Shown: one piece after another, positions 36,227-47,480 of the stretch
Numbering within the stretch: position 1 is the first letter of the stretch
Layout: each line of letters starts with the position of its first letter
DNA from: Amylibacter sp. IMCC11727
GTDB lineage: Bacteria; Pseudomonadota; Alphaproteobacteria; Rhodobacterales; Rhodobacteraceae
Direction: 5' to 3'
Assembly: GCF_029854195.1 (NCBI RefSeq)
Contig: NZ_CP122960.1
Span: 510,984-574,983, forward strand
Length of the DNA: 64,000 bases
Notes under the pieces: generated by a model
The model's database searches: none
Seen by the model: only the letters and a program-made list of their open reading frames with translations
Told to the model about the DNA's origin: nothing
Made by a program: the position numbers and the translations under genes

Positions 36227-36591
36227 AACCAGAGATTAAACGTGCGTTTGATGCGGTTGAAGCGCCAGAGCGGGAAACGTTATTGGCGGCGCGGGATCTG
36301 ATTTTCGATTGCGCGGGGGACATCGCGGTTGAGGAGTGTTTGAAGTGGGGGCAGCCGTCGTATGTTGCGCCCAAGGGTTCAACGCTGCGGTTGGGGGTGA
36401 CCAAGGCAGGGCAGGCGGCGATTTATGCCCATTGTCAAAGTTCGATTGTGTCGGATTTTGCCGCGCAATTTGGAGCGGATTTTGAGATTGAGGGCAACCG
36501 TGCCGTGATGTTGGGGGATTTCACGCCAGAGGATCAGGACAAGCTGCGTGCCCTGATCCGTCATGGACTTACCTACAAAGTTAAATCGTAG
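36223..36591 (+). CDS. DUF1801 domain protein
   Basis: KWGQPSY motif, 122 aa. Confidence 0.55.
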   Translation: MKPEIKRAFDAVEAPERETLLAARDLIFDCAGDIAVEECLKWGQPSYVAPKGSTLRLGVTKAGQAAIYAHCQSSIVSDFAAQFGADFEIEGNRAVMLGDFTPEDQDKLRALIRHGLTYKVKS

Positions 36592-37108
36592 ACTTCAGCT
36601 TTTCCATCAGGCCATCGACCGCGTTTTGATAGCTTTCTTCTTTGAGCGAGCCATCATCGTTGAATGCTGCGTAGCTGGCCGCGACCGCCACAAGGGGGCC
36701 GTGCAGCAGACGGGGCTGAAATGCGGTGAGGCAGAGGCGCAGAGAGTTGAGCGCCATAACGCCGCCTGCACGACCCGCAGTTGCGGACATGATTGCGACA
36801 GGTTTGTCGCCCATTGGCATGGGTTTGATGCGGCTGATCCAATCGAGCGCATTTTTCAGAACACCCGACAGGTTGCCGTTGTATTCGGGCGTAGAAATAA
36901 GGATCGCATCCGCGCCTTGTACCTGATCGTAGAGCGTTTGAACCGCGGCAGGGATGCCTTCGTTTTCTTCGATGTCACCATCGTAGAGAGGCAAGTTCAG
37001 GTCTGCGAGCGTGTAGTCGCCCCCGAAGGATTTCGCAGCAGCGGCAAGCAAAAATGTGTTGTGGCTGTTTTTGCGAAGGGAGCCAGAAATACCAAGAAGT
37101 TTTGTCAT
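36581..37108 (-). CDS. NADPH-dependent FMN reductase
   Basis: LGISGSLRKNSHN flavodoxin-like motif. Confidence 0.8.
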   Translation of the reverse strand: MTKLLGISGSLRKNSHNTFLLAAAAKSFGGDYTLADLNLPLYDGDIEENEGIPAAVQTLYDQVQGADAILISTPEYNGNLSGVLKNALDWISRIKPMPMGDKPVAIMSATAGRAGGVMALNSLRLCLTAFQPRLLHGPLVAVAASYAAFNDDGSLKEESYQNAVDGLMEKLKSTI

Positions 37109-37374
37109 GAGATGTGCCTTTGAATGTTGAAGTTGTAACAAAGCTAGGCCGAATGTTGGCGACTTCCAAGGCAATCCGTGCCGAACAAACTGTTCGTTTG
37201 CGTATACGCAATTTTAAACTTCGGGAGTGTAACGTGCCTTATTGCCACAAAAATCGGCTTTTTGTTTCCAAATCGCGCACAATCGTTGTGAAACAGGCTG
37301 TGGGTGCGTATGGTTCTGGAAAAACAACAAACGGCACGCGGATCAAGCGTGCAAAGTAAATCGAGGGTAGTGAC

Positions 37375-39015
37375 GTGGCAGGCAAAGAGTATCAAATCGC
37401 AGCGTTGTGGATGGAAGGAAGCCTGAGCTTTCTGGAGCAGTTGTGTCTGAAATCCTTTGTGGATGCGGGGCACCATGTGAAGCTGTATCACTATGGCCCA
37501 TTGCAAAACGTGCCAGATGGGATGGAATTGGCAGATGCGTCTGTGGTTTTGCCGCGAACGGATTTTCTGGCCCATGCGCGCACAGGCTCCCCTGCGCTGC
37601 ATTCTGACTTGTTCCGCTATAAAATGCTGGAACAGGAGAAAGACACGATTTGGGCGGATACGGATGCCTATTGCATGAAGAAATTTGAAACGCCGAACGG
37701 GCATTTCTATGGCTGGGAATCCGAAAAGCACATCAATGGTGGGGTTTTGGGTCTGCCGTCTGATTGTGACACATTGGGGGAGTTGCTGGAGTTCACATCC
37801 GATGAATTCGCGATCCCGACGTGGTACGGCGATGAATACACGCGCGAGTTGGAAGAAAAGCGGGATGCAGGAGACCCCGTTCATGCGTCCGAGCAGCCCT
37901 GGGGTGTTTGGGGGCCACATGCGGTGACGCATTTCCTGCACAAAACGGGCGAGGCGAAATACGCCCTGCCGCAAGAGGGTTTGTATCCTGTCACCTACAA
38001 AGATCGCCGCAACATGTTGAAGCGGAATTTCGACATGACGCCGTATATCACGGAAAACACGTTTTCTGTGCATTTGTACGGCCGCCGTATGCGAGCGCGT
38101 TTGGTTGAGAAAGAGGGCGGTGCGCCCCATCCCAAGAGCCTGTTGGGGCAGTTGATTAAGAAGCACGACATTGACCCAGAGGCAGCCCCGTTGCCCCCGT
38201 CACGGGCGCAGAAAGCGGCCGCCGAGGGCCGCGTTGAAGAAAAGACGCCAAAGGTAAAGGTGCCAAAGGCGGCCAAGTCGAAGCCTGTGATCACGGTGCC
38301 CAAAGTTGCGCCGATTGATCAATCGGAACGGGCGGGCATTGGACTAGTGAACCTGACCGATATTGCGGACAAGTATGAGGTGGATAAGGGCAGCAAGCGG
38401 CATCGGTATACGGACATGTATCAGATGCTGTTTTCACCCCTGCGCACCCGCAAATTGAATGTGATGGAAATGGGCCTGCAAGATGGTGGGCCAGAGCATG
38501 AGTTCCCAGTGAATCGCAAAACCACGGATGCGCCGAGCATTCGCATGTGGCTGGAGTATTTCCCAAAAGCCGAGGTTTTTGGTTTGGATGTGTGCGATTT
38601 CAGCTGGTTGAAAGAGGATCGGTTCACGTTTGTGCAGTGTGATATGGACGCGCGTGAAAACATCGCGACCGCCGCAAAAGACCTGCCAAAGATGGATATC
38701 ATCGTGGATGACGCGAGCCACGCATCGCATCATCAGCAAAACGCGTTTTTGGAGTTGTTTCCAAAGATGGCATCTGGCGGGATTTATGCGATTGAGAGCC
38801 TGCGCTGGCAGCCAAAGCATATGGAGACCAAAGGGTTCACCAAGACCGCCGATCTGTTTTATGGATATCAGAAAGACGGTGCCTTTTCCCATTCTGACAA
38901 AGAGATCGAAGCAGAGCTGAACGGCCTGCGCAAACATATCTCGGGGTGTTTCATGTATCAGGTGGGATATGACAAATCCCGCAAAGATCAGTTCATGGTT
39001 ATCCAGAAACGATAA
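37375..39015 (+). CDS. Bifunctional protein: N-terminal GT32-like glycosyltransferase (DXD) plus C-terminal class I SAM-dependent methyltransferase (CmcI/Methyltransf_24-like), joined by a Pro/Lys-rich linker
   Basis: N-terminal LWMEGSLSFLEQLCLKSF and DLFRYKMLEQEKDTIWADTDAYCMKKF match the Gly_transf_sug pattern. The linker is PKVKVPKAAKSKPVITVPKVAP. The C-terminus has DKGSKRHRYTDMY...GLDV...IIVDDASHASHHQQNAFLELFPKMASGGIYAIESL. GTG start. Confidence 0.7.
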   Translation: MAGKEYQIAALWMEGSLSFLEQLCLKSFVDAGHHVKLYHYGPLQNVPDGMELADASVVLPRTDFLAHARTGSPALHSDLFRYKMLEQEKDTIWADTDAYCMKKFETPNGHFYGWESEKHINGGVLGLPSDCDTLGELLEFTSDEFAIPTWYGDEYTRELEEKRDAGDPVHASEQPWGVWGPHAVTHFLHKTGEAKYALPQEGLYPVTYKDRRNMLKRNFDMTPYITENTFSVHLYGRRMRARLVEKEGGAPHPKSLLGQLIKKHDIDPEAAPLPPSRAQKAAAEGRVEEKTPKVKVPKAAKSKPVITVPKVAPIDQSERAGIGLVNLTDIADKYEVDKGSKRHRYTDMYQMLFSPLRTRKLNVMEMGLQDGGPEHEFPVNRKTTDAPSIRMWLEYFPKAEVFGLDVCDFSWLKEDRFTFVQCDMDARENIATAAKDLPKMDIIVDDASHASHHQQNAFLELFPKMASGGIYAIESLRWQPKHMETKGFTKTADLFYGYQKDGAFSHSDKEIEAELNGLRKHISGCFMYQVGYDKSRKDQFMVIQKR

Positions 39016-39020
39016 ACGGT

Positions 39021-39965
39021 ATGGCGTCCGACACGGAGCACATGGAAGACGAGCCGCTGGAGCGGGAAGTTGAAACAGGGATTATCCCTGATTGGTATCG
39101 TGACATTTATCCTGACGGTGAGCGGGATGGGTTTTACGAAAAGATCGGCGCGCATTCGTTGTGCTATGTGGAGCGCAATCTGAGCCAGTTGGTGATCACG
39201 TTTGATAACCTTGCCGAGGCAGGGCACGAAGGGTACGATCGCGAGGCCTGGGCATCAGGGTTTTGCAATTACAACAACTGGTCCCACATGGGGATTTTCG
39301 CGCAAGGGCCCACGTGGTTTCGCGATGAACGATTGATCCGCCGATTGGAAAAGCTGCGTGACGATGGGTTTTTTGAGCAATTCGGCTATGTCGCGTTGGC
39401 AGGGGCATCTATGGGCGGGTTCGCCGCCATGGTGTTTAGCGCGTTGATACCAGAAGCCACCGTGATTGCGTTTAGCCCCCAGACGAGCCTGAGCCGAGAC
39501 ATTGTGCCGTGGGAAACGCGATTCAGAAAAGGACACGGAGCGGATTGGACATTGCCCTATTCCGATGCGGTGCCCTGTATTGAAAGCGCCAACAAGGTTT
39601 ACATCGTGTATGACCAGTTCGAAAAGCTGGACAATGAACATGCCAAGCGGTTGTCAGGGGACAATGTGATCCATCTGCGTGCCCCTGCGTTTGGGCATCG
39701 TACATCGCTGTTTTTACGCCGATTGGATGTGTTGAAACCTGTGATGGGCGAAGGTGTTCTGGGGACGTTGGATGCAGCACGGTTTAGCGAGATGATCCGT
39801 GATCGGGGCAAAATCTGGCTGTATCGCACGGTGATGGAGCATCATCTGTTGCAACGGGGTTTAGACGATTGGGTGCCGATTATGCAGGACGCATTCAAGC
39901 ACCGCCGTTGGAAGATTAAGCAGGCGGAAAAACGGGCCGAGCGCCGTGCGGAGAAACGCGCATGA
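39021..39965 (+). CDS. Hypothetical protein, possibly alpha/beta-hydrolase-like
   Basis: GxSxGG-like GASMGGFAAMVF followed by a beta-strand-like VIAFSP. It sits 6 nt after the upstream stop. No recognised family. Confidence 0.5.
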   Translation: MASDTEHMEDEPLEREVETGIIPDWYRDIYPDGERDGFYEKIGAHSLCYVERNLSQLVITFDNLAEAGHEGYDREAWASGFCNYNNWSHMGIFAQGPTWFRDERLIRRLEKLRDDGFFEQFGYVALAGASMGGFAAMVFSALIPEATVIAFSPQTSLSRDIVPWETRFRKGHGADWTLPYSDAVPCIESANKVYIVYDQFEKLDNEHAKRLSGDNVIHLRAPAFGHRTSLFLRRLDVLKPVMGEGVLGTLDAARFSEMIRDRGKIWLYRTVMEHHLLQRGLDDWVPIMQDAFKHRRWKIKQAEKRAERRAEKRA

Positions 39966-40990
39966 TTTTAGGTGTGACCTGTTTGCGCAATGAAGGGCCG
40001 TATGTGGTTGATTGGATCGCGCATCATTTGGCGGCTGGGTTTGATCACATGCTGGTGCTGACCCACGATTGCGATGATGGCAGTGCGGAATTGCTCAATG
40101 CGCTGAGCGCGGATGATCGCATCACGCATCTGCCGTTTGAATTTAACGCAGACAAAACCGTGCAGTGGCAGGCGTTGAATATCGCCAAGAAACATCCGTT
40201 GGTGAAGGATGCGGAATGGGTGATGTTTTTCGATTGTGATGAATACATGAACCTGCCCGAAGGGAACGTGAAAACGCTGGTGGCCAGTATGCCGGAGGCG
40301 GAGGCGATTGCCTTTCCGTGGCGATTGTTTGGGGCAGCGGGGCAAGAGGTGTATGACACTGCGCCAGTAACGGAGCGGTTTCGCATGTGCGCGCCCCATG
40401 GGATGAATTATCCATTGTCGTGCCTGTTTAAGACGTTGTTTAAACCATCAGCGTTTCGCCAAATGGGGGTGCATCGTCCGCGCAACAAAAAAGATCAGGT
40501 GGCGGTTTGGTATGCGTCGAACGGGCAAAAGCTGCCCGATCAAATTGTGCAGCAGGATAAGGCGATTTCGCTGATGAATGCGGTGCGGTTTGATGAAGAC
40601 ATGGCGTATATGAACCATTATTCGGTGCGGTCTGCGCAAGAGTTCATGCTGAAATCTGTGCGCGGTTTGCCCAACCACATGGATCGCAGAATTGATCTGT
40701 CCTACTGGGCGGAGCGGAATTTCAACGTGGTCGAAGACACGGCGATTGATCGAATGGCAGATGCCACAGTTGTGGTCCGTGGTGAATTGTTGGCGCTGCC
40801 TGATGTGGACATTCTGCATACGGGCAGTTGTGAAGAGCATAAACGGCGGATTGCTGTGATGCTGGACGATCTTGAAAATGTGCGTCTGATCTGGCGGTTG
40901 GGATTGCTGGCAAGCAGCACGCCGCCACCGATGGATCGGGCCATGCGGTATATCAAAACTCAGATTCGGATGAAAAAATACAATGGCTAA
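39962..40990 (+). CDS. Glycosyltransferase (Glyco_tranf_2_4 / GT92-like fold)
   Basis: CLRNEGPYVVDWIAHHLAAGFDHMLVLTHDCDDGS and DCDEY motifs. 4-nt overlap with the upstream gene. Confidence 0.7.
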   Translation: MILGVTCLRNEGPYVVDWIAHHLAAGFDHMLVLTHDCDDGSAELLNALSADDRITHLPFEFNADKTVQWQALNIAKKHPLVKDAEWVMFFDCDEYMNLPEGNVKTLVASMPEAEAIAFPWRLFGAAGQEVYDTAPVTERFRMCAPHGMNYPLSCLFKTLFKPSAFRQMGVHRPRNKKDQVAVWYASNGQKLPDQIVQQDKAISLMNAVRFDEDMAYMNHYSVRSAQEFMLKSVRGLPNHMDRRIDLSYWAERNFNVVEDTAIDRMADATVVVRGELLALPDVDILHTGSCEEHKRRIAVMLDDLENVRLIWRLGLLASSTPPPMDRAMRYIKTQIRMKKYNG

Positions 40991-43244
40991 GTCTGAGAAA
41001 AACGAATTACATCGCCGCCATATGAATGTGGTTGAGGCCGAGGGGATTGTCCTGTTGGACGCTGTTTCGGTGGTGCGGGATGACAAACGGATTGTGCATC
41101 TGTTTTTCCATTCTGATGCAGATACGTTGCGGGTGTTTCCCGGCAAAGATTTGTCGGTATTGGAAACGCGCAGCATTGGCGGGGCCACGTGGTGGACGTG
41201 TGAAACCTCTAAGTTGGAGGGGCCGCTGAAGATGGTGTTTGAGGACACCGCAGTCAAGATTGATCCTAATGTGGCCGAGTTGGACCTGTTTGCAGGCAAG
41301 AATTGTTTCGTGTCTGTGCGCAGTGGTGAAAGTGCCGAGGTGGTTCTGAGTTGGCTTGACTACCACATCCAGCATCATGATTTGCAGGGCGCGGTGATTT
41401 TGGATCGTGCGGAGCCAGGCACGGACAAGGGATTTATGCGCCGATTGCGCAAGGGTTTGAACAAATTGTCTGGTCCGTGTGAGGTGGTGTTGCTGAATGC
41501 GGAAACACCATTGGGGGATCCGAAACTGCCCCCCGAAGCGCACCCGTTTAATGCCCCTGATGCGCCGGGCAAAGACCGCATGGATATCCCTGACCCTGAT
41601 GCTTGGGCATCGCCGATTTCACAGGTGATGATTTACGAGTTGATCCGCAATCGGTTCCTTGGGACCGCGCGCGCCGTGGCGAATATTGATGTGTATGATC
41701 TGATGATCGAAGGCCATGACACCAGCCTGTTTGATGCGGCGGTGGCCGCGGATACTGGGTTGATCCCGCTGGGTGGGCGGCATGTGTATCCGTGGCGCAC
41801 GCGCAAAAATCGCCCTGCGGAATTTGGCGATCATATCTGTGTTCAGTTTGATGTGAAAAAAATGAAGGCGCGGTGGTGTATTGCGCCTGATGTGGCATCG
41901 GACGCGGCTATTTGGCGGCTGATCCGTGTGGGCAATGTGAATGCAAATGTGGATGATGCGCGGCTGTTTTATCGGTTCATGTCGTTGCGTCACCCCACGC
42001 CATCTGTGTCCAAGATCGTGCCAAAATCGAGCCTAGTGGAACATAAGCCGCTGATTGAATTGGCGCAAAAACGGTTTGGCGAAAAACCCGTGCGCATGCC
42101 TGTGATCAAGGCGGATTTAGACAACGGGCGCGGGCGTGCCTGTATCATGACCTGTATGAAAAACGAGGGGCCGTTCATTTTGGAATGGGTCGCGTATCAC
42201 AAGGCAATCGGGTTCGACGATTTCATCGTTTACACAAACGACTGCACCGATGGCACGGATACGCTGTTGGATAAACTGCAGGAACGGGGGATTTTGCAGC
42301 ATCGGGACAATCCGTACCGCGACGTAGATATGAAACCACAACATGCTGCCATGCACGCCGTTGACGACGAAGAGATCGTGCAAAAAGCCAGTTGGGTGGT
42401 GAACATGGATGTGGATGAATTCGTCAACATCAAGTGTGGGGATGGAACGCTTGATGCGTTGTTTGCAGCCGTGCCAGAAGCCAATATGTTTGCGATGACG
42501 TGGCGGTTGTTTGGCAATGGCGATGTGGAAGAATACAAAGACGAGTTGTTGGTGAAACAACTGACCCGCTGTGCGCCAGAGTTTGCCAATAAACCGCATC
42601 AAGCGTGGGGGTTTAAAACCCTGTACCAGAACAACGGGTTTTTCAAAAAGATGGGGGTGCATCGCCCCAAAGGATTGAACCCGCAATTGTGGGAGCAAAT
42701 CCACTGGGTCAATGGATCGGGTGTGAAACTGCCCAAGGAAATTTACCGCAATGCGTGGCGGTCCACCACACAGACCTATGGCTATGATCTGGTGCAGCTG
42801 AACCATTATGCGGTGCGCAGTGCGGAGAGCTTTCTGGTGAAACGGGATCGGGGCCGCGTGAACCACGTGGATCGAGATCAGGGGCTGGCGTATTGGTTTC
42901 GGATGAACAACAACGCGGAGGAGGAAACCTCTATCCAGCGGATGATCCCGAAATTGCAGGCGGAATTGGACAAGCTGATGGCGGATGAAGAAATCGCGGC
43001 CATTCACCACGAGGCCGTGCGCCGCCACCGTGCCAAGATTGATGAGCTGCGGGCCACGGAAAAATACACTGCATTTTATGCGGATTTGATCGGGCCGCGT
43101 TTGCGCAAACTGTCCCGTCTGCATTCGCATTTCGGATCGAACGTGTTTTTGTCAGGCCCTGATGTGATCCCAGATGAGGTGGTGGATCAGGACCCCGCAT
43201 CTGATTTCTTTTTCACGGTGGAAAAGGGCGAAACGAACCATTAA
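40983..43244 (+). CDS. Tandem-domain glycosyltransferase (two GT92-like domains, the N-terminal copy being divergent)
   Basis: The C-terminal half has MKNEGPFILEWVAYHKAIGFDDFIVYTNDCTDGT and VDEF, paralogous to the 39962 gene. The N-terminal half keeps a weaker SWLDYHIQHHDLQGAVILDR motif. 8-nt overlap with the upstream gene. Confidence 0.7.
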   Translation: MAKSEKNELHRRHMNVVEAEGIVLLDAVSVVRDDKRIVHLFFHSDADTLRVFPGKDLSVLETRSIGGATWWTCETSKLEGPLKMVFEDTAVKIDPNVAELDLFAGKNCFVSVRSGESAEVVLSWLDYHIQHHDLQGAVILDRAEPGTDKGFMRRLRKGLNKLSGPCEVVLLNAETPLGDPKLPPEAHPFNAPDAPGKDRMDIPDPDAWASPISQVMIYELIRNRFLGTARAVANIDVYDLMIEGHDTSLFDAAVAADTGLIPLGGRHVYPWRTRKNRPAEFGDHICVQFDVKKMKARWCIAPDVASDAAIWRLIRVGNVNANVDDARLFYRFMSLRHPTPSVSKIVPKSSLVEHKPLIELAQKRFGEKPVRMPVIKADLDNGRGRACIMTCMKNEGPFILEWVAYHKAIGFDDFIVYTNDCTDGTDTLLDKLQERGILQHRDNPYRDVDMKPQHAAMHAVDDEEIVQKASWVVNMDVDEFVNIKCGDGTLDALFAAVPEANMFAMTWRLFGNGDVEEYKDELLVKQLTRCAPEFANKPHQAWGFKTLYQNNGFFKKMGVHRPKGLNPQLWEQIHWVNGSGVKLPKEIYRNAWRSTTQTYGYDLVQLNHYAVRSAESFLVKRDRGRVNHVDRDQGLAYWFRMNNNAEEETSIQRMIPKLQAELDKLMADEEIAAIHHEAVRRHRAKIDELRATEKYTAFYADLIGPRLRKLSRLHSHFGSNVFLSGPDVIPDEVVDQDPASDFFFTVEKGETNH

Positions 43245-43288
43245 CTCTGACAGAGCAAATGTGATGGTGACTGCGTAAGGGGTGGACA

Positions 43289-44179
43289 TTGAAGTTTCGG
43301 ATTTTCTTTGGCGCCCATCGGGCCGCGCAAGAGCATTTGGCCGCACAGTTGGGTGCGAACCGTGATCTGTTGGAGGCGAACGGCATTCTGTTGCCAGCAG
43401 AGGACGAGATGGAAGCGGCCGTTTGGCCTGCTATTCGTGCCATGCGTCGCAACAATGCGGATGAAAATACGCTGCCCAAGATGATCAAGAAACTGACGGG
43501 CGGCAAGGATTACAAAACCATTTTGATTGTGCGCCCGTCGATCAGCGGGTCCCCCCTGCGCCCGATCAAGGATGATATCATTTACCCGCGCGGCAGTGCC
43601 ACGGTGGCACATTTGATCAAATTGATTGGGCAAGACGATGTGGAATTATTCTGTGCGCTGCGCAATCCTGCGAGCTTTCTTCCGTCTTGTTACAACGTGG
43701 CCTATATGAATGAGCCGACGCAAAGCTTGCAGGAGTTTGTGACGGTCAGTGATCCGTTTGCGCTGCGGTGGTCGGAATATTTGCACCGCGTGCAAGGGCG
43801 CGAGAGCGAGCTGCCGCTGACGGTTTGGACGTTTGAAGATTACCCTTATATCTGGCGCAGCGTGGCGCAGGCGTTTGCGGGTTTGCCCAACAAAGAGGAT
43901 TTGGTTGCGGTGGATCATCCGCTGGATCAGGGGATGTCGTTAAAGGGTTTGTTGTTGATGCAAGAATACCTGAAACAGCATCCCGCCGAAACGGCATCAA
44001 AACGCAATCAGGTGGCGCAAAAATTTGAAGAGCGGTTTCCACCTGTGGCAGGAGAAGTGATTCCCGATCAGTGGCCCGAAGATTTGGTTAGCACACTGAG
44101 CGACAGCTATGATGATGACCTGTATTACATCGAGCGGATGGAAAATATTCACCTGATAAAACGCCCGATTTACAGGTGA
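43289..44179 (+). CDS. Sulfotransferase-family paralog with a degenerate PAPS-binding (5'-PSB) loop
   Basis: It aligns with the 46794-47480 protein (MKFRIFFGAHRAAQEHL versus MKKALIHIGPHKTGSTYI), but K/TGST is replaced by R/AAQE. A 3'-PB-like RNPASFLPSCY is retained. Confidence 0.55.
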   Translation: MKFRIFFGAHRAAQEHLAAQLGANRDLLEANGILLPAEDEMEAAVWPAIRAMRRNNADENTLPKMIKKLTGGKDYKTILIVRPSISGSPLRPIKDDIIYPRGSATVAHLIKLIGQDDVELFCALRNPASFLPSCYNVAYMNEPTQSLQEFVTVSDPFALRWSEYLHRVQGRESELPLTVWTFEDYPYIWRSVAQAFAGLPNKEDLVAVDHPLDQGMSLKGLLLMQEYLKQHPAETASKRNQVAQKFEERFPPVAGEVIPDQWPEDLVSTLSDSYDDDLYYIERMENIHLIKRPIYR

Positions 44180-44326
44180 TTTAGCGGCTTTTCATCCCTC
44201 AGAGTTTACAAATTTTCCTGCGAAGGATAAAGGTGAACATGATAAGTAATTGTTTTTAAACAATTAATTGACAGGTCCATTTCTTAGTCATACGTTAAGG
44301 TTACATTAACGTTTGGAGTACCCTTT

Positions 44327-44455
44327 TTGAAAAACCTCATCATAACTGCCATCTTGGCTTTGACTGTATCTCTCCCTTATCAGGCCATTGCCCATTCAGG
44401 TGGCACAAACGCCGCTGGCTGTCATGCTGGGTCCAAACCCTATCACTGTCACTAA
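44327..44455 (+). CDS. Small secreted His/Cys-rich peptide (mature HSGGTNAAGCHAGSKPYHCH)
   Basis: TTG start 10 nt after ggag. Signal peptide KNLIITAILALTVSLPYQAIA, then a 20-aa HSGG...GCH...YHCH motif. It lies in an AT-rich intergenic region and is below the 60-aa ORF cutoff. Confidence 0.5.
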   Translation: MKNLIITAILALTVSLPYQAIAHSGGTNAAGCHAGSKPYHCH

Positions 44456-44460
44456 TGCGT

Positions 44461-44556
44461 CCCGAGTGAAGGTGTACTGAGTTGGGGTGTACCGAGTGAA
44501 AACGTACTGAGTTCATGCTTACCGAGTGTCGGCGTACTGAGTTTCTCCCAAGTGAA
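44461..44556 (+). repeat. Three to four imperfect direct repeats (ccgagtgNNNNcgtactgagtt) with 25-33 bp spacing
   Basis: cccgagtgaaggtgtactgagtt, ccgagtgaaaacgtactgagtt and ccgagtgtcggcgtactgagtt, plus a partial cccaagtgaagacgg, all read directly from the sequence. Confidence 0.6.
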
Positions 44557-44700: not shown

Positions 44701-45309
44701 TTAAAACTCCACCCCAATCTGCGCTTTGATCCCTGACCTAAATGGATGTTTCACCAGTTCCATTTCTGTCACCAGATCGGCGATTTCGATCAGTTCTTCT
44801 TTGGCGTTGCGGCCCGTTAGGACCACGTGGGTCATTTCGGGTTTTTCTTCGACCAGAAATTCCACCACGTCGTTGATGTCGATGTAGTCATAGCGCAGGG
44901 CGATGTTGATTTCGTCTAGCAGCACCATTTTGTTGCTTTCGTCGCGGATCAGTTCTTTGGCCTTTTCCCATGCGGCTTGGGCCATTTCGGTGTCGCGGGT
45001 TTTGTCTTGGGTTTCCCAGGTGAAGCCCTCGCCCATGGTGTGGAAGGCGCATTTGTCGGCGAATGTGCCAAGGATGAGGTCCCGTTCGCCCGTGGACATG
45101 CCGCCTTTGATGAACTGCACCACGCCGCATTTCATGTCGTGGGCAATGCAGCGAAAGATCATGCCAAACGCGGCGGATGATTTGCCTTTGCCTTTGCCGG
45201 TGTTGACGATCACGAGGCCCTTTTTATCGGTCTTGGTGGCCATGATCTTGTCACGTGCGGCCTTTTTCTTGGCCATTTTCATTGCGTGGCGTTCGGTATC
45301 TTCGGTCAT
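44701..45309 (-). CDS. cobO: Cob(I)yrinic acid a,c-diamide adenosyltransferase (CobO/BtuR type)
   Basis: KGLVIVNTGKGKGKSSAAFG P-loop. Start taken at MTEDTE (45309). Confidence 0.85.
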   Translation of the reverse strand: MTEDTERHAMKMAKKKAARDKIMATKTDKKGLVIVNTGKGKGKSSAAFGMIFRCIAHDMKCGVVQFIKGGMSTGERDLILGTFADKCAFHTMGEGFTWETQDKTRDTEMAQAAWEKAKELIRDESNKMVLLDEINIALRYDYIDINDVVEFLVEEKPEMTHVVLTGRNAKEELIEIADLVTEMELVKHPFRSGIKAQIGVEF

Positions 45310-45401
45310 GGCTTTCTCTTTCTTTTGTGCAGAAATACTTCCGCCGGAGGCAAATCGCCCTGTTAAGGGCTTATGGGGTGACGCGTGAGCGTCGCTTTTG
45401 G

Positions 45402-46277
45402 TTAACGGGTTGGGACAGGGAAATCCCCGCGGTAATCGTAAAAGCCGCGTTTGGTTTTGCGGCCGAGCCAGCCCGCTTCGACGTATTTGGTTAACAACGG
45501 ACACGGACGGTATTTTGTGTCTGCCAGCCCATCGTGCAGCACGTTCATGATGGCAAGGCAGGTGTCGAGCCCGATGAAATCCGCCAGTTCCAGCGGCCCC
45601 ATGGGGTGGTTTGCGCCCAGTTTGAGCGAGGTGTCGATGCTTTGAACGTTTCCGACCCCTTCGTACAGGGTGTAGATCGCTTCGTTGATCATCGGCATCA
45701 GAATGCGGTTCACGATGAAGGCGGGGAAATCTTCGGCGGTGGAGGAGGTTTTGCCGATCTTTTCCACGACCGCATTTACGGCGTTATAGGTTGCATCATC
45801 CGTGGCGATCCCGCGGATCAATTCCACCAGTTGCATGATCGGTACGGGGTTCATGAAGTGCAGCCCCATAAACCGTTCGGGGCGATCCGTGCGTGAGGCA
45901 AGCCGTGTGATGGAAATGGAGGATGTGTTCGAGGTCAGGATCGTATCCTTGCCGATATGGGGCAGGATGTCTTCGAAGATGGCCTGTTTGATCGTTTCGC
46001 GCTCGGTGGCGGCTTCGATGACCAAATCCACGGTGCCGCATTCTGCCAGTGTGGTCACGGGTGTGATGTTGCCAAGGGTGCGGGTTTTGTCGGCTTCGGT
46101 GATTGTGGACCGGGCGATGGCGCGGTCCAGATTTTTGATGACGGTTGCGATACCTTTATCAAGCGCGTCCTTGGAGATATCGTACAGGCGCACTTCGAAA
46201 TCGGCGCCTGCAAAGACTTGAGCGATGCCGTTGCCCATTTGGCCTGCGCCGATCACGCTTACAGATTTGATGTCCAT
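45402..46277 (-). CDS. hbd: 3-hydroxybutyryl-CoA dehydrogenase
   Basis: VIGAGQMGNGIAQV NAD-binding motif and 3HCDH C-terminal domain. Confidence 0.85.
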   Translation of the reverse strand: MDIKSVSVIGAGQMGNGIAQVFAGADFEVRLYDISKDALDKGIATVIKNLDRAIARSTITEADKTRTLGNITPVTTLAECGTVDLVIEAATERETIKQAIFEDILPHIGKDTILTSNTSSISITRLASRTDRPERFMGLHFMNPVPIMQLVELIRGIATDDATYNAVNAVVEKIGKTSSTAEDFPAFIVNRILMPMINEAIYTLYEGVGNVQSIDTSLKLGANHPMGPLELADFIGLDTCLAIMNVLHDGLADTKYRPCPLLTKYVEAGWLGRKTKRGFYDYRGDFPVPTR

Positions 46278-46793: not shown

Positions 46794-47480
46794 TCAAGAC
46801 CGACGTGGCGAAACATTCACCGGTTCGATCCAGTCCATGTGATCAAGAACCGCATCGGGAATGCCGAAATAGCGGAACATATCCGCGCCTAACCGCCCTG
46901 ATACGGCATCCGTTTCGTAGCTGCGGAACACAACGGCGTCTTTGCCAAGGGCGGTGTACATGGTTTCGGTGAAGGTGTCCCATGCGAAGGGCAGGCCATT
47001 GGCGCGGCTGAATTTGCGCGGGGCAAAGGTGCGTTTTTTGTCGCGGAATTTATGGGCATGAACCGAGCGCAGCCAATCCTGATATTCGCGGATGTAGCAA
47101 AAGAACTGGGTTTCGACCTCGGCATCATCAAAGCCTGCTTGGATGGCGGGTAAGGTCAGGTGCAAAAACGGATAGAGCCCGTAAATTTTGGCCAGTGTGG
47201 GCACGGGGCCGAGCAGGTCTTCGCTGCTGATGAGGGTGTTTGGGGCGGTCAGGCTGCGGCCCAGTTCATAGGCGGTTTGGTGGATGGTCTGCAAAGAATT
47301 GGTCGCATCCTCGGAATTATGAACGCCAAGAGTAAACCGTTGAAGTGCATCAAACAGCGGGTCAGATTTTGGGAAAAACTGATGCGAGGGGGCCAGCAGA
47401 TGCGCGTTGGTCTGCATCATCTTTTGAATATAGGTGGAGCCCGTTTTATGGGGGCCGATATGAATAAGCGCCTTTTTCAT
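46794..47480 (-). CDS. Sulfotransferase-family protein (canonical PAPS P-loop)
   Basis: IHIGPHKTGSTYIQ 5'-PSB motif. Confidence 0.7.
   Translation of the reverse strand: MKKALIHIGPHKTGSTYIQKMMQTNAHLLAPSHQFFPKSDPLFDALQRFTLGVHNSEDATNSLQTIHQTAYELGRSLTAPNTLISSEDLLGPVPTLAKIYGLYPFLHLTLPAIQAGFDDAEVETQFFCYIREYQDWLRSVHAHKFRDKKRTFAPRKFSRANGLPFAWDTFTETMYTALGKDAVVFRSYETDAVSGRLGADMFRYFGIPDAVLDHMDWIEPVNVSPRRS

Follow-up and report, generated by a model that had tools for sequence, protein, structure and literature searches.

Gene content of the cluster and its surroundings

We analysed a cluster of five co-directional genes, here called g1 to g5, in a 64,000-nt stretch of the genome of Amylibacter sp. IMCC11727 (contig NZ_CP122960.1, positions 510,984–574,983; hereafter the window, whose own numbering is used below unless a related locus is named), and found that the domains encoded by these genes recur as one conserved module in Rhodobacterales. 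The cluster occupies positions 37375–44179 (Table 1). An earlier reading made from the letters of the DNA alone (the sequence-only reading) had described five tightly coupled genes here; all of their open reading frames (ORFs) were found where it had placed them, and the spacings (5 nt between g1 and g2, overlaps of 4 nt between g2 and g3 and of 8 nt between g3 and g4, and 44 nt between g4 and g5) differ from the earlier ones by counting convention only. By its layout, the cluster appears to be one operon-like, translationally coupled module. That g1–g5 are real genes is supported by database proteins 100% identical to g1 (P0001, from Amylibacter sp. IMCC11727) and g5 (P0121), and by orthologs of all five (53–88% identity) that are arranged alike in loci of Amylibacter and Neptunicoccus.

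Table 1. Genes, domains, and related features (loci used for comparison are numbered with the prefix L)
Feature	Position	Strand	Size or residues	Basis and remarks
g1	37375–39015	+	546 aa	GTG start
g1 domain A, GT32-like DXD glycosyltransferase domain	37375–38190	+	residues 1–272	homology via Acinetobacter baumannii relative
g1 linker, Pro/Lys/Ala-rich	38191–38340	+	residues ~273–322	variable length and sequence
g1 domain B, MycE/TylE-type S-adenosylmethionine (SAM)-dependent sugar O-methyltransferase	38341–39015	+	residues 323–546	PDB sequence search
g2 (domain C), probable α/β-hydrolase-fold serine enzyme	39021–39965	+	314 aa	sub-threshold Pfam matches, motif residues
g3 (domain D), single GT92/GT2_4 GT-A glycosyltransferase	39962–40990	+	342 aa	Pfam; DXD is D91-C-D93-E94
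g4	40983–43244	+	753 aa	
g4 N-half (domain E), β-sandwich and divergent GT92-like GT-A domain	40983–42122	+	residues 1–380; sandwich ~8–93	AlphaFold2 model
g4 C-half (domain D), GT92/GT2_4 glycosyltransferase	42138–43244	+	residues ~386–753	Pfam
g5 (domain F), sulfotransferase-fold protein	43289–44179	+	296 aa	predicted structure; TTG start; degenerate 5′-phosphosulfate-binding loop GAHRAAQE
FMN_red gene, upstream flank	36581–37174	−		Pfam, E = 4.6e-37
CobA/CobO gene (cobO), downstream flank	44701–45504	−		domain match
Sulfotransferase-fold paralog (G type), possible sixth component	46794–47480	−	228 aa	hhalign; GPHKTGST loop
RTX sulfatase of related clusters	L014 11599–13740; L016 11599–13740; L017 11622–13760; L018 12522–14657; L028 12465–14603; also L008 and L049		~712 aa	

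No transmembrane-like segment was found in any of the five proteins by a hydropathy scan (the Kyte-Doolittle 19-residue mean peaks at 1.77, in the nucleophile-elbow strand of g2), and all five are acidic with polar N-termini, in agreement with the earlier statement that they lack transmembrane segments and signal peptides. The flanking genes are, as had been described, unrelated: Pfam matches identify an FMN reductase gene upstream, itself preceded by genes for a lytic transglycosylase, a WYL regulator, a GST, and a DUF1801 protein, and downstream lie cobO, genes for a 3-hydroxyacyl-CoA dehydrogenase and a DUF1330 protein, an unannotated 228-aa ORF, and ETF genes. Neither an exporter nor a polyprenyl-phosphate transferase or nucleotide-sugar gene was found within ~8 kb of the cluster, again as claimed before. 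The GC content of the cluster (0.533; 0.62–0.64 at third codon positions) resembles that of the rest of the window (0.545), and a recent foreign insert or island was therefore ruled out; a phage or viral origin was also rejected, as no relative was found in IMG/VR. Rfam and tRNA scans gave no match in or beside the cluster, promoter and terminator scans gave no signals exceeding the shuffled background, none of the five proteins had a match in NCBIfam, and an exact look-up of g4 in a contig collection returned no match.

Domain composition of the five proteins

The N-terminal half of g1 (domain A) had no match in Pfam at E ≤ 10, PF04488 (Gly_transf_sug) included. Its assignment as a GT32-like DXD glycosyltransferase domain is, however, supported transitively through a homolog from A. 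baumannii (WP_000987455.1), which aligned with domain A over 240 columns (hhalign probability 99.95, E = 2e-37) and itself passes the Pfam threshold for Gly_transf_sug (26.4 bits, cut-off 23), with weak matches also to Gb3_synth and Caps_synth; the GT32-like label given previously thus stands by way of this homolog, and not by a direct match. Domain A carries the signature SDLFRY...IWADTDAYC, in which H76-S-D78-L-F-R81-Y and I92-W-A-D95-T-D97-A-Y-C show little or no variation in sets of 18 and 89 homologs, with D95-T-D97 invariant in all 89 sequences; the pattern SDxxRxxxL ... DxD is the signature of the Gly_transf_sug family. The linker that follows is unconserved and contains many indels in the alignment of 18 homologs.

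A profile search of the PDB placed the C-terminal half of g1 (domain B) next to TylE (8ia9, E = 9e-27) and MycE (3ssm, E = 1.5e-26), with ~150 aligned residues (g1 307–462) that cover the SAM-binding core and the DDxSH motif. The earlier call of a SAM methyltransferase was therefore correct, but its CmcI/Methyltransf_24 label was not the closest one, as Methyltransf_24 scored 16.2 bits, below threshold, and MycE and TylE are nearer (E of about 1e-26). Domain B differs from these two enzymes in being fused to a glycosyltransferase and in lacking their N-terminal region; the alignment begins ~155–180 residues into MycE/TylE, so that the N-terminal auxiliary domain of MycE has no counterpart in g1, and the substrate of domain B would be a glycan rather than a macrolide. 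In g1 of Amylibacter, the sequence E474-S475 has Ser in place of the Asp of an IEDL stretch that is conserved in MycE, TylE, and most homologs; we take this Asp to be a metal ligand in MycE. A 232-aa hypothetical protein encoded on the symbiosis plasmid of Bradyrhizobium guangxiense (L087 8007–8705), ~1 kb upstream of nodU, shares 45% identity with domain B; it may be the Nod-factor fucose 2-O-methyltransferase NoeI.

The second protein, g2, is a probable Ser/His α/β-hydrolase judging from its motifs. Pfam Esterase matched at the nucleophile elbow below its cut-off (E = 0.0013; 19 bits, cut-off 22), relatives of g2 had sub-threshold matches to Abhydrolase_1, Abhydrolase_6, Hydrolase_4, and Peptidase_S9 at the same place, a direct search of PDB sequences with g2 gave no useful match, and the best match of the g2 profile in the PDB had E = 0.07. 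Candidate residues are the G128-A-S130-M-G132 elbow, D198, D204, H207, and H226, and their Ser/Asp/His order fits a catalytic triad. In an alignment of 38 sequences, S130 and H226 are jointly lost in the same five paralogs, with D198, D204, and H207 kept, which indicates a catalytic Ser/His pair; the consistent though sub-threshold signals together with this co-varying pair bear out the previous description of g2 as hydrolase-like. The five paralogs without Ser130 and His226 (L014 6398–7396, L065 11553–12521, L068 11546–12502, L069 8196–9173, and L078 11557–12531) are likely to be pseudo-enzyme copies that stand beside intact copies.

Domain C belongs to a large uncharacterised serine-hydrolase-like family that the module exposes; a library of 1.84 billion proteins contains 1698 relatives at E ≤ 1e-3, counted as representatives clustered at 50% identity, and members are fused to at least four glycosyltransferase families. 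Sampled long members contain GT92, GT2, GT61, and "Rhamno_transf" domains, from which we conclude that domain C is a general accessory domain of glycosyltransferases. Distant relatives in Ketogulonicigenium and Gluconobacter are named just "hypothetical" or "glycosyltransferase". Several proteins of ~700–750 aa (L014 13737–15947, minus strand; L028 14625–16709, plus strand; library proteins P0229, P0231, and P0235) begin with a domain C; the ~400 residues at the C-terminal end of the ~700-aa proteins had no match to our domain models or to Pfam and, by their sequence, appear to form a further uncharacterised domain of the system.

The description of g3 as GT92-like was confirmed, as it passes the Pfam thresholds for Glyco_tranf_2_4 (PF13704; 64.6 bits, cut-off 27.5) and Glyco_transf_92 (PF01697; 35.6 bits, cut-off 23). 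The C-terminal half of g4 also exceeds both cut-offs, with matches at residues 393–510 (75.8 and 37.1 bits, respectively), and shares 34% identity with g3 along 300 residues (E = 1e-54); the residues conserved across 119 sequences of domain D include D91, D93, E94, H171-R-P, and H219-Y. The N-terminal half of g4 (domain E) had no Pfam match, neither g4 itself nor the domain E profile had a useful match among PDB sequences, and a local hhalign comparison of domain E with domain D produced a match of 37 columns at 5% probability. Structure prediction, which was applied to this half and to g5, gave an AlphaFold2 model (pLDDT 94.5) with a β-sandwich followed by an α/β domain; the model is closest to the plant galactan synthase GalS1 (GT92, PDB 8d3t), and the architecture of GalS1, an N-terminal β-sandwich and a GT-A catalytic domain, is present in it. 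On this model, the claim that g4 is a tandem GT92-like glycosyltransferase holds, a relation for which sequence comparison did not suffice. Differences from GalS1 include a sequence identity of 9%, an altered DXD (D236-V-Y-D239, conserved yet non-canonical), bacterial origin, and a soluble form without membrane anchor; GalS1 is a Golgi membrane protein. To our knowledge, no bacterial GT92 enzyme has been characterised.

The fifth protein, g5, had no Pfam match and no sequence match in the PDB. Its predicted structure has a sulfotransferase fold, with ~10% identity to heparan sulfate sulfotransferases and NDST; unlike these, g5 lacks the PKxGTT loop. In place of a PKxGTT-like loop with its catalytic Lys, it has G8-A-H-R-A-A-Q-E, and the Lys position is unconserved in the F family. 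The R125-N-P-A sequence, in the region of the 3′-phosphate motif, is invariant in the family, and Ser133 of g5 is Ala in most relatives. Because the canonical 5′-phosphosulfate loop for binding 3′-phosphoadenosine 5′-phosphosulfate (PAPS) is missing, sulfation by g5 is doubtful; the previous sulfotransferase assignment is upheld as to the fold and weakened as to the activity. The 228-aa ORF downstream of the cluster had no Pfam match but aligned with the g5 family (hhalign probability 93, E = 3e-7), and family-level comparisons linked type F to type G (E = 1e-30) and type G to type H (E = 4e-32). This G-type paralog is located 2.6 kb downstream of the cluster, past cobO and the 3-hydroxyacyl-CoA dehydrogenase and DUF1330 genes, and keeps its relative position in L004 and L005. 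In other genera, an H-type protein with a conserved PKTGTT loop is found inside the cluster and is fused to domain C in 17 loci.

Conservation and genomic context in Rhodobacterales

Homologs were sought with g1 as the query in one genome per GTDB species; g1 relatives were present in at least 349 species representatives, and the locus comparisons reported here use the best 80 of these 349 loci, almost all of which belong to Rhodobacterales. Hidden Markov models were built for each domain, i.e., A (GT32-like), B (methyltransferase), C (g2), D (GT92), E (N-half of g4), and F, G, and H (sulfotransferase fold). Of the Rhodobacterales loci, 48 extend for at least 6 kb to either side of the g1 homolog; among these, domain D was present in 42, domain C in 35, domain E in 32, and a sulfotransferase-fold domain in 27; these counts are lower bounds, as the gene caller was crude. 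The comparison of neighbourhoods across Rhodobacterales that the sequence-only reading had proposed thus showed that the domains co-occur in most loci, in shuffled order and with many fusions (AB, AD, ADD, ADC, AAADC, CD, HC, ED, and CC); in the Roseovarius group, A and B are separate genes. Orthologs from different genera share 48–88% identity, and the flanks seen in the window are common to the Amylibacter/Neptunicoccus group only, the other loci differing in order, strand, and genomic context. The recurrence of the same domains in shuffled order and in many fusions is strong evidence that they work on one product. The idea of a five-gene system is supported by this conserved co-occurrence, but the system is not strictly five genes, given the sulfotransferase-fold paralog found downstream. 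No description of the cluster or its members, or of bacterial GT92 enzymes, was found in the literature.

None of the 80 clusters contains an ORF with three or more transmembrane-like segments. Ten flanking membrane proteins were checked and represented an uptake ABC permease, a P-type ATPase, a SulP permease, a MATE protein, a branched-chain amino-acid permease, an Mrp antiporter, two TRAP proteins, an MFS protein, and TrkH; no Wzx, Wzy, Wzm, or Kps component was among them, and no wzm/wzt, kpsMT, wzx, wzy, or phosphoglycosyl transferase gene was found near any of the 80 loci. The lack of an exporter is therefore a conserved property. It had been considered earlier that homologs might prove to be embedded in classical lipopolysaccharide (LPS) or capsule loci; instead, membrane proteins are absent from all 80 clusters, and the transporters beside them are unrelated systems for uptake or for ions.

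Some clusters contain additional genes, for an RTX-repeat sulfatase, a GSCFA protein, an NAD-dependent epimerase, or a GT25 glycosyltransferase labelled "LPS biosynthesis" (four related loci, three of them shown as clusters). The ~712-aa sulfatase, found inside seven related clusters, has an N-terminal Sulfatase domain (Pfam E = 1.3e-37, with a CxPxR motif and a weak SGSH_C match) and C-terminal RTX repeats, and no signal peptide was detected in it. RTX repeats are a mark of type I secretion, and this protein is probably secreted by that route, which hints at an exposed or extracellular product.

Three further observations concern neighbouring or related loci. In two loci (L008 557–2356 and L041 6837–8495), the cluster is flanked by a gene for a SulP-family sulfate permease with a STAS domain, perhaps by chance or perhaps as a weak connection with the supply of sulfate. 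A distinct cluster on a plasmid of Pontibrevibacter nitratireducens (L085; NZ_CP049814.1, 11977–24663) reuses A-like and B-like domains and further contains genes for a 1115-aa GT2 protein, a GSCFA protein, an acyl carrier protein, and KAS III, and a plasmid of Phaeobacter inhibens P78 (L086, 6671–13355) combines A-like and B-like domains with a GT2 protein and an FkbM methyltransferase. No annotated polysaccharide exporter was present in either plasmid cluster, the adjacent ABC transporters being dependent on substrate-binding proteins.

Proposed function of the module

From what the domains are, from their conserved co-occurrence and fusions, and from the lack of membrane components described above, we propose that the module builds and modifies a heteroglycan at the inner membrane, on its cytoplasmic side, using soluble or peripheral enzymes only; sugar specificities, order of action, acceptor, and final location are given here as we infer them. 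Four GT-A modules would add sugars from nucleotide-sugar donors made elsewhere, the GT32-like one probably with retention and the three GT92-like ones (g3 and both halves of g4) probably with inversion of configuration, and the GalS1-like β-sandwich at the N-terminus of g4 may grip the growing glycan (acceptor) chain. The MycE-like domain would O-methylate a sugar hydroxyl, probably on the residue just added by domain A, because the two domains are fused in g1. The hydrolase-like g2 may remove or transfer an ester or amide substituent, such as acetyl, and the sulfotransferase-fold proteins would add sulfate, with the G-type paralog the likelier catalyst and g5 perhaps a degenerate partner. Hydrolase and sulfotransferase may act in sequence, as the HC fusion recalls the deacetylate-then-sulfate logic of NDST. 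Neither the acceptor nor the export step would be encoded in the module, and housekeeping machinery would flip the acceptor.

The product best fits a lipid-linked envelope or surface glycoconjugate made by a locus of the lipooligosaccharide (LOS)/LPS outer-core (OC) type and served by MsbA, a reading that we prefer but hold tentatively, with somewhat less than even confidence. OC loci need neither an exporter nor an initiating transferase, the lipid A-core being the acceptor that MsbA flips. Since such loci are likewise exporter-less, a cytoplasmic acceptor does not follow from missing exporters; the sequence-only reading had proposed one (a protein such as flagellin, or a small molecule), and this proposal was not sustained, with no candidate acceptor consistently adjacent to the clusters. 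The identity between genera is far higher than would be expected of loci for O-antigens or capsules, which vary widely, and this argues against a hypervariable locus of either kind. In addition, the nearest Pfam-validated relative of domain A, from A. baumannii, adjoins a GT25 gene. The OC loci of A. baumannii combine glycosyltransferases, including Gly_transf_sug and Glyco_transf_25 enzymes, with deacetylases, an acylhydrolase, and an acyltransferase (PMC4172580). They thus resemble the Amylibacter cluster as compact sets of soluble glycosyltransferases and tailoring enzymes without exporter or primer; the link of the cluster to LOS is one that we infer. The Amylibacter cluster differs in having a polymerase-like tandem glycosyltransferase and in not lying beside a recognised lipid A or core gene. 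We know of no OC locus with GT92 enzymes, a MycE-type methyltransferase, or sulfotransferase-fold proteins.

Several points weigh against an outer-core-type product. No lipid A, Kdo, heptose, msbA, or ligase gene was recognised beside the clusters, where most flanking genes are unannotated and differ by genus, and we judge the distribution of the module to be patchy, the genera of the best 80 loci being scattered across the order. A tandem GT92 protein with a GalS1-like acceptor-binding domain, in loci with up to 5–7 glycosyltransferase domains, is polymerase-like, and MsbA is not known to us to flip long polymers. The sulfotransferase-fold protein inside the cluster, g5, has a degenerate PAPS loop. 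The A. baumannii link consists of a single homolog, which is 32% identical and is encoded on a record of 3.5 kb, possibly an assembly fragment, and no experiment or publication on any member of the module was found in the literature.

Alternatively, the product may stay in the cytoplasm, either as a free oligo- or polysaccharide bearing methyl and perhaps sulfate or acyl groups, by analogy with the methylmannose or methylglucose polysaccharides of mycobacteria, or as a glycosylated small molecule or lipid, which we consider possible but rather doubtful. This corresponds to the sequence-only reading without its protein acceptors. Consistent with this, g1–g5 are all soluble and acidic, none of the 80 clusters has an exporter, initiating phosphoglycosyl transferase, or carrier gene in or beside it, and a GalS1-like chain-binding domain would suit elongation of a polymer from a soluble primer. 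We know of no cytoplasmic sulfated glycan in bacteria, and the RTX-repeat sulfatase in seven clusters and the GT25 "LPS biosynthesis" gene in some also count against an internal product. A precedent is the small, exporter-less mycobacterial cluster for methylmannose polysaccharide (MMP), in which a glycosyltransferase, sugar O-methyltransferases, and a hydrolase required for biogenesis make a methylated glycan in the cytoplasm (PMC9883506). The resemblance is functional only, i.e., the same kinds of enzymes in an exporter-less cluster: the MMP enzymes are not homologous to those described here (ManT is a GT-B enzyme and MmpH an endomannosidase and thus a glycoside hydrolase; those of the module are GT-A, MycE-like, and serine-hydrolase-like), the MMP cluster has no sulfotransferase and is confined to Actinobacteria, and searching PDB sequences with g1, g2, g4, and g5 retrieved no chain from it.

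A bolder and unlikely reading is that families of Golgi type (a GalS1-like GT92 polymerase, a fusion of GT32-like transferase and sugar O-methyltransferase, and an NDST-like hydrolase–sulfotransferase pair) make a previously unseen methylated, sulfated galactan- or glycosaminoglycan-like glycan in many marine Rhodobacterales, without a dedicated exporter. If so, such a polymer would be either, in the cytoplasm, the first system resembling that of polymethylated polysaccharides outside Actinobacteria or, at the surface, a mimic of algal sulfated galactans, and its enzymes would be the first functional bacterial GT92 enzymes.

Glycosylation of a protein in the cytoplasm, by which a methylated or sulfated O- or N-linked glycan would be placed on a protein secreted later (flagellin, an RTX/type I substrate, or an adhesin), appears quite unlikely. 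No flagellin, pilin, adhesin, or other candidate acceptor is consistently adjacent in the 80 loci, whose contexts vary by genus, and 4–7 glycosyltransferase domains with a chain-binding module exceed any bacterial cytoplasmic protein glycosylation system known to us. The RTX protein could be seen as an acceptor, but it is an intact sulfatase with a CxPxR motif and is therefore more likely to be an enzyme of the pathway. Regulation with motility through a CtrA box was rejected; TTAA-N7-TTAA occurred in none of 79 upstream regions, which shared no convincing common motif.

A classical pathway for a capsule or O-antigen (dependent on an ABC transporter or on Wzx/Wzy), of which the cluster would provide the synthesis half with the export and priming genes elsewhere in the genome, is very improbable: multi-domain soluble GT-A polymerases with a terminal methyltransferase are typical of ABC-dependent O-polysaccharides (e.g., WbdA/WbdD) and sulfated O-polysaccharides have been reported from marine Rhodobacteraceae, but export genes are normally linked to synthesis genes in known capsule and O-antigen systems, whereas such genes were near none of the 80 loci, which span many genera, and the identity between genera is unlike that of hypervariable loci.

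All components of the module belong to known enzyme superfamilies, and exporter-less glycosyltransferase clusters are already familiar; what is distinctive is the breadth across Rhodobacterales, the GalS1-like bacterial tandem GT92 protein, the fusions of glycosyltransferase with methyltransferase and of sulfotransferase with hydrolase, and the large domain C family. Rhodobacterales are a dominant marine, alga-associated bacterial group, in which this module is so far undescribed in the literature that we found. A methylated or sulfated surface glycan, if that is what the module makes, would be relevant to recognition by phages and grazers, to attachment between algae and bacteria, and to the cycling of sulfated carbohydrates in the sea. 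Soluble bacterial GT92 enzymes with the architecture of GalS1 could also be tractable models for the GT92 enzymes of plants and animals.

A small ORF downstream of g5

The AT-rich islet reported after the cluster corresponds to a stretch (44000–44499) with a GC content of 0.446, and the tiny secreted-peptide gene placed in it was likewise recovered, as a 42-aa ORF with a TTG start (44327–44455, plus strand) in the gap between g5 and cobO. It had no Pfam match and is missing from the Neptunicoccus loci. The predicted product has a signal-peptide-like N-terminus and the mature part HSGGTNAAGCHAGSKPYHCH; the 20 mature residues are near-identical in an uncultured Amylibacter at the same position (L001 13102–13227), where the signal part has diverged. 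Judging from this pattern, the ORF looks like a real gene for a small secreted Cys/His-rich peptide that is unconnected with the glycan cluster and possibly binds metal.

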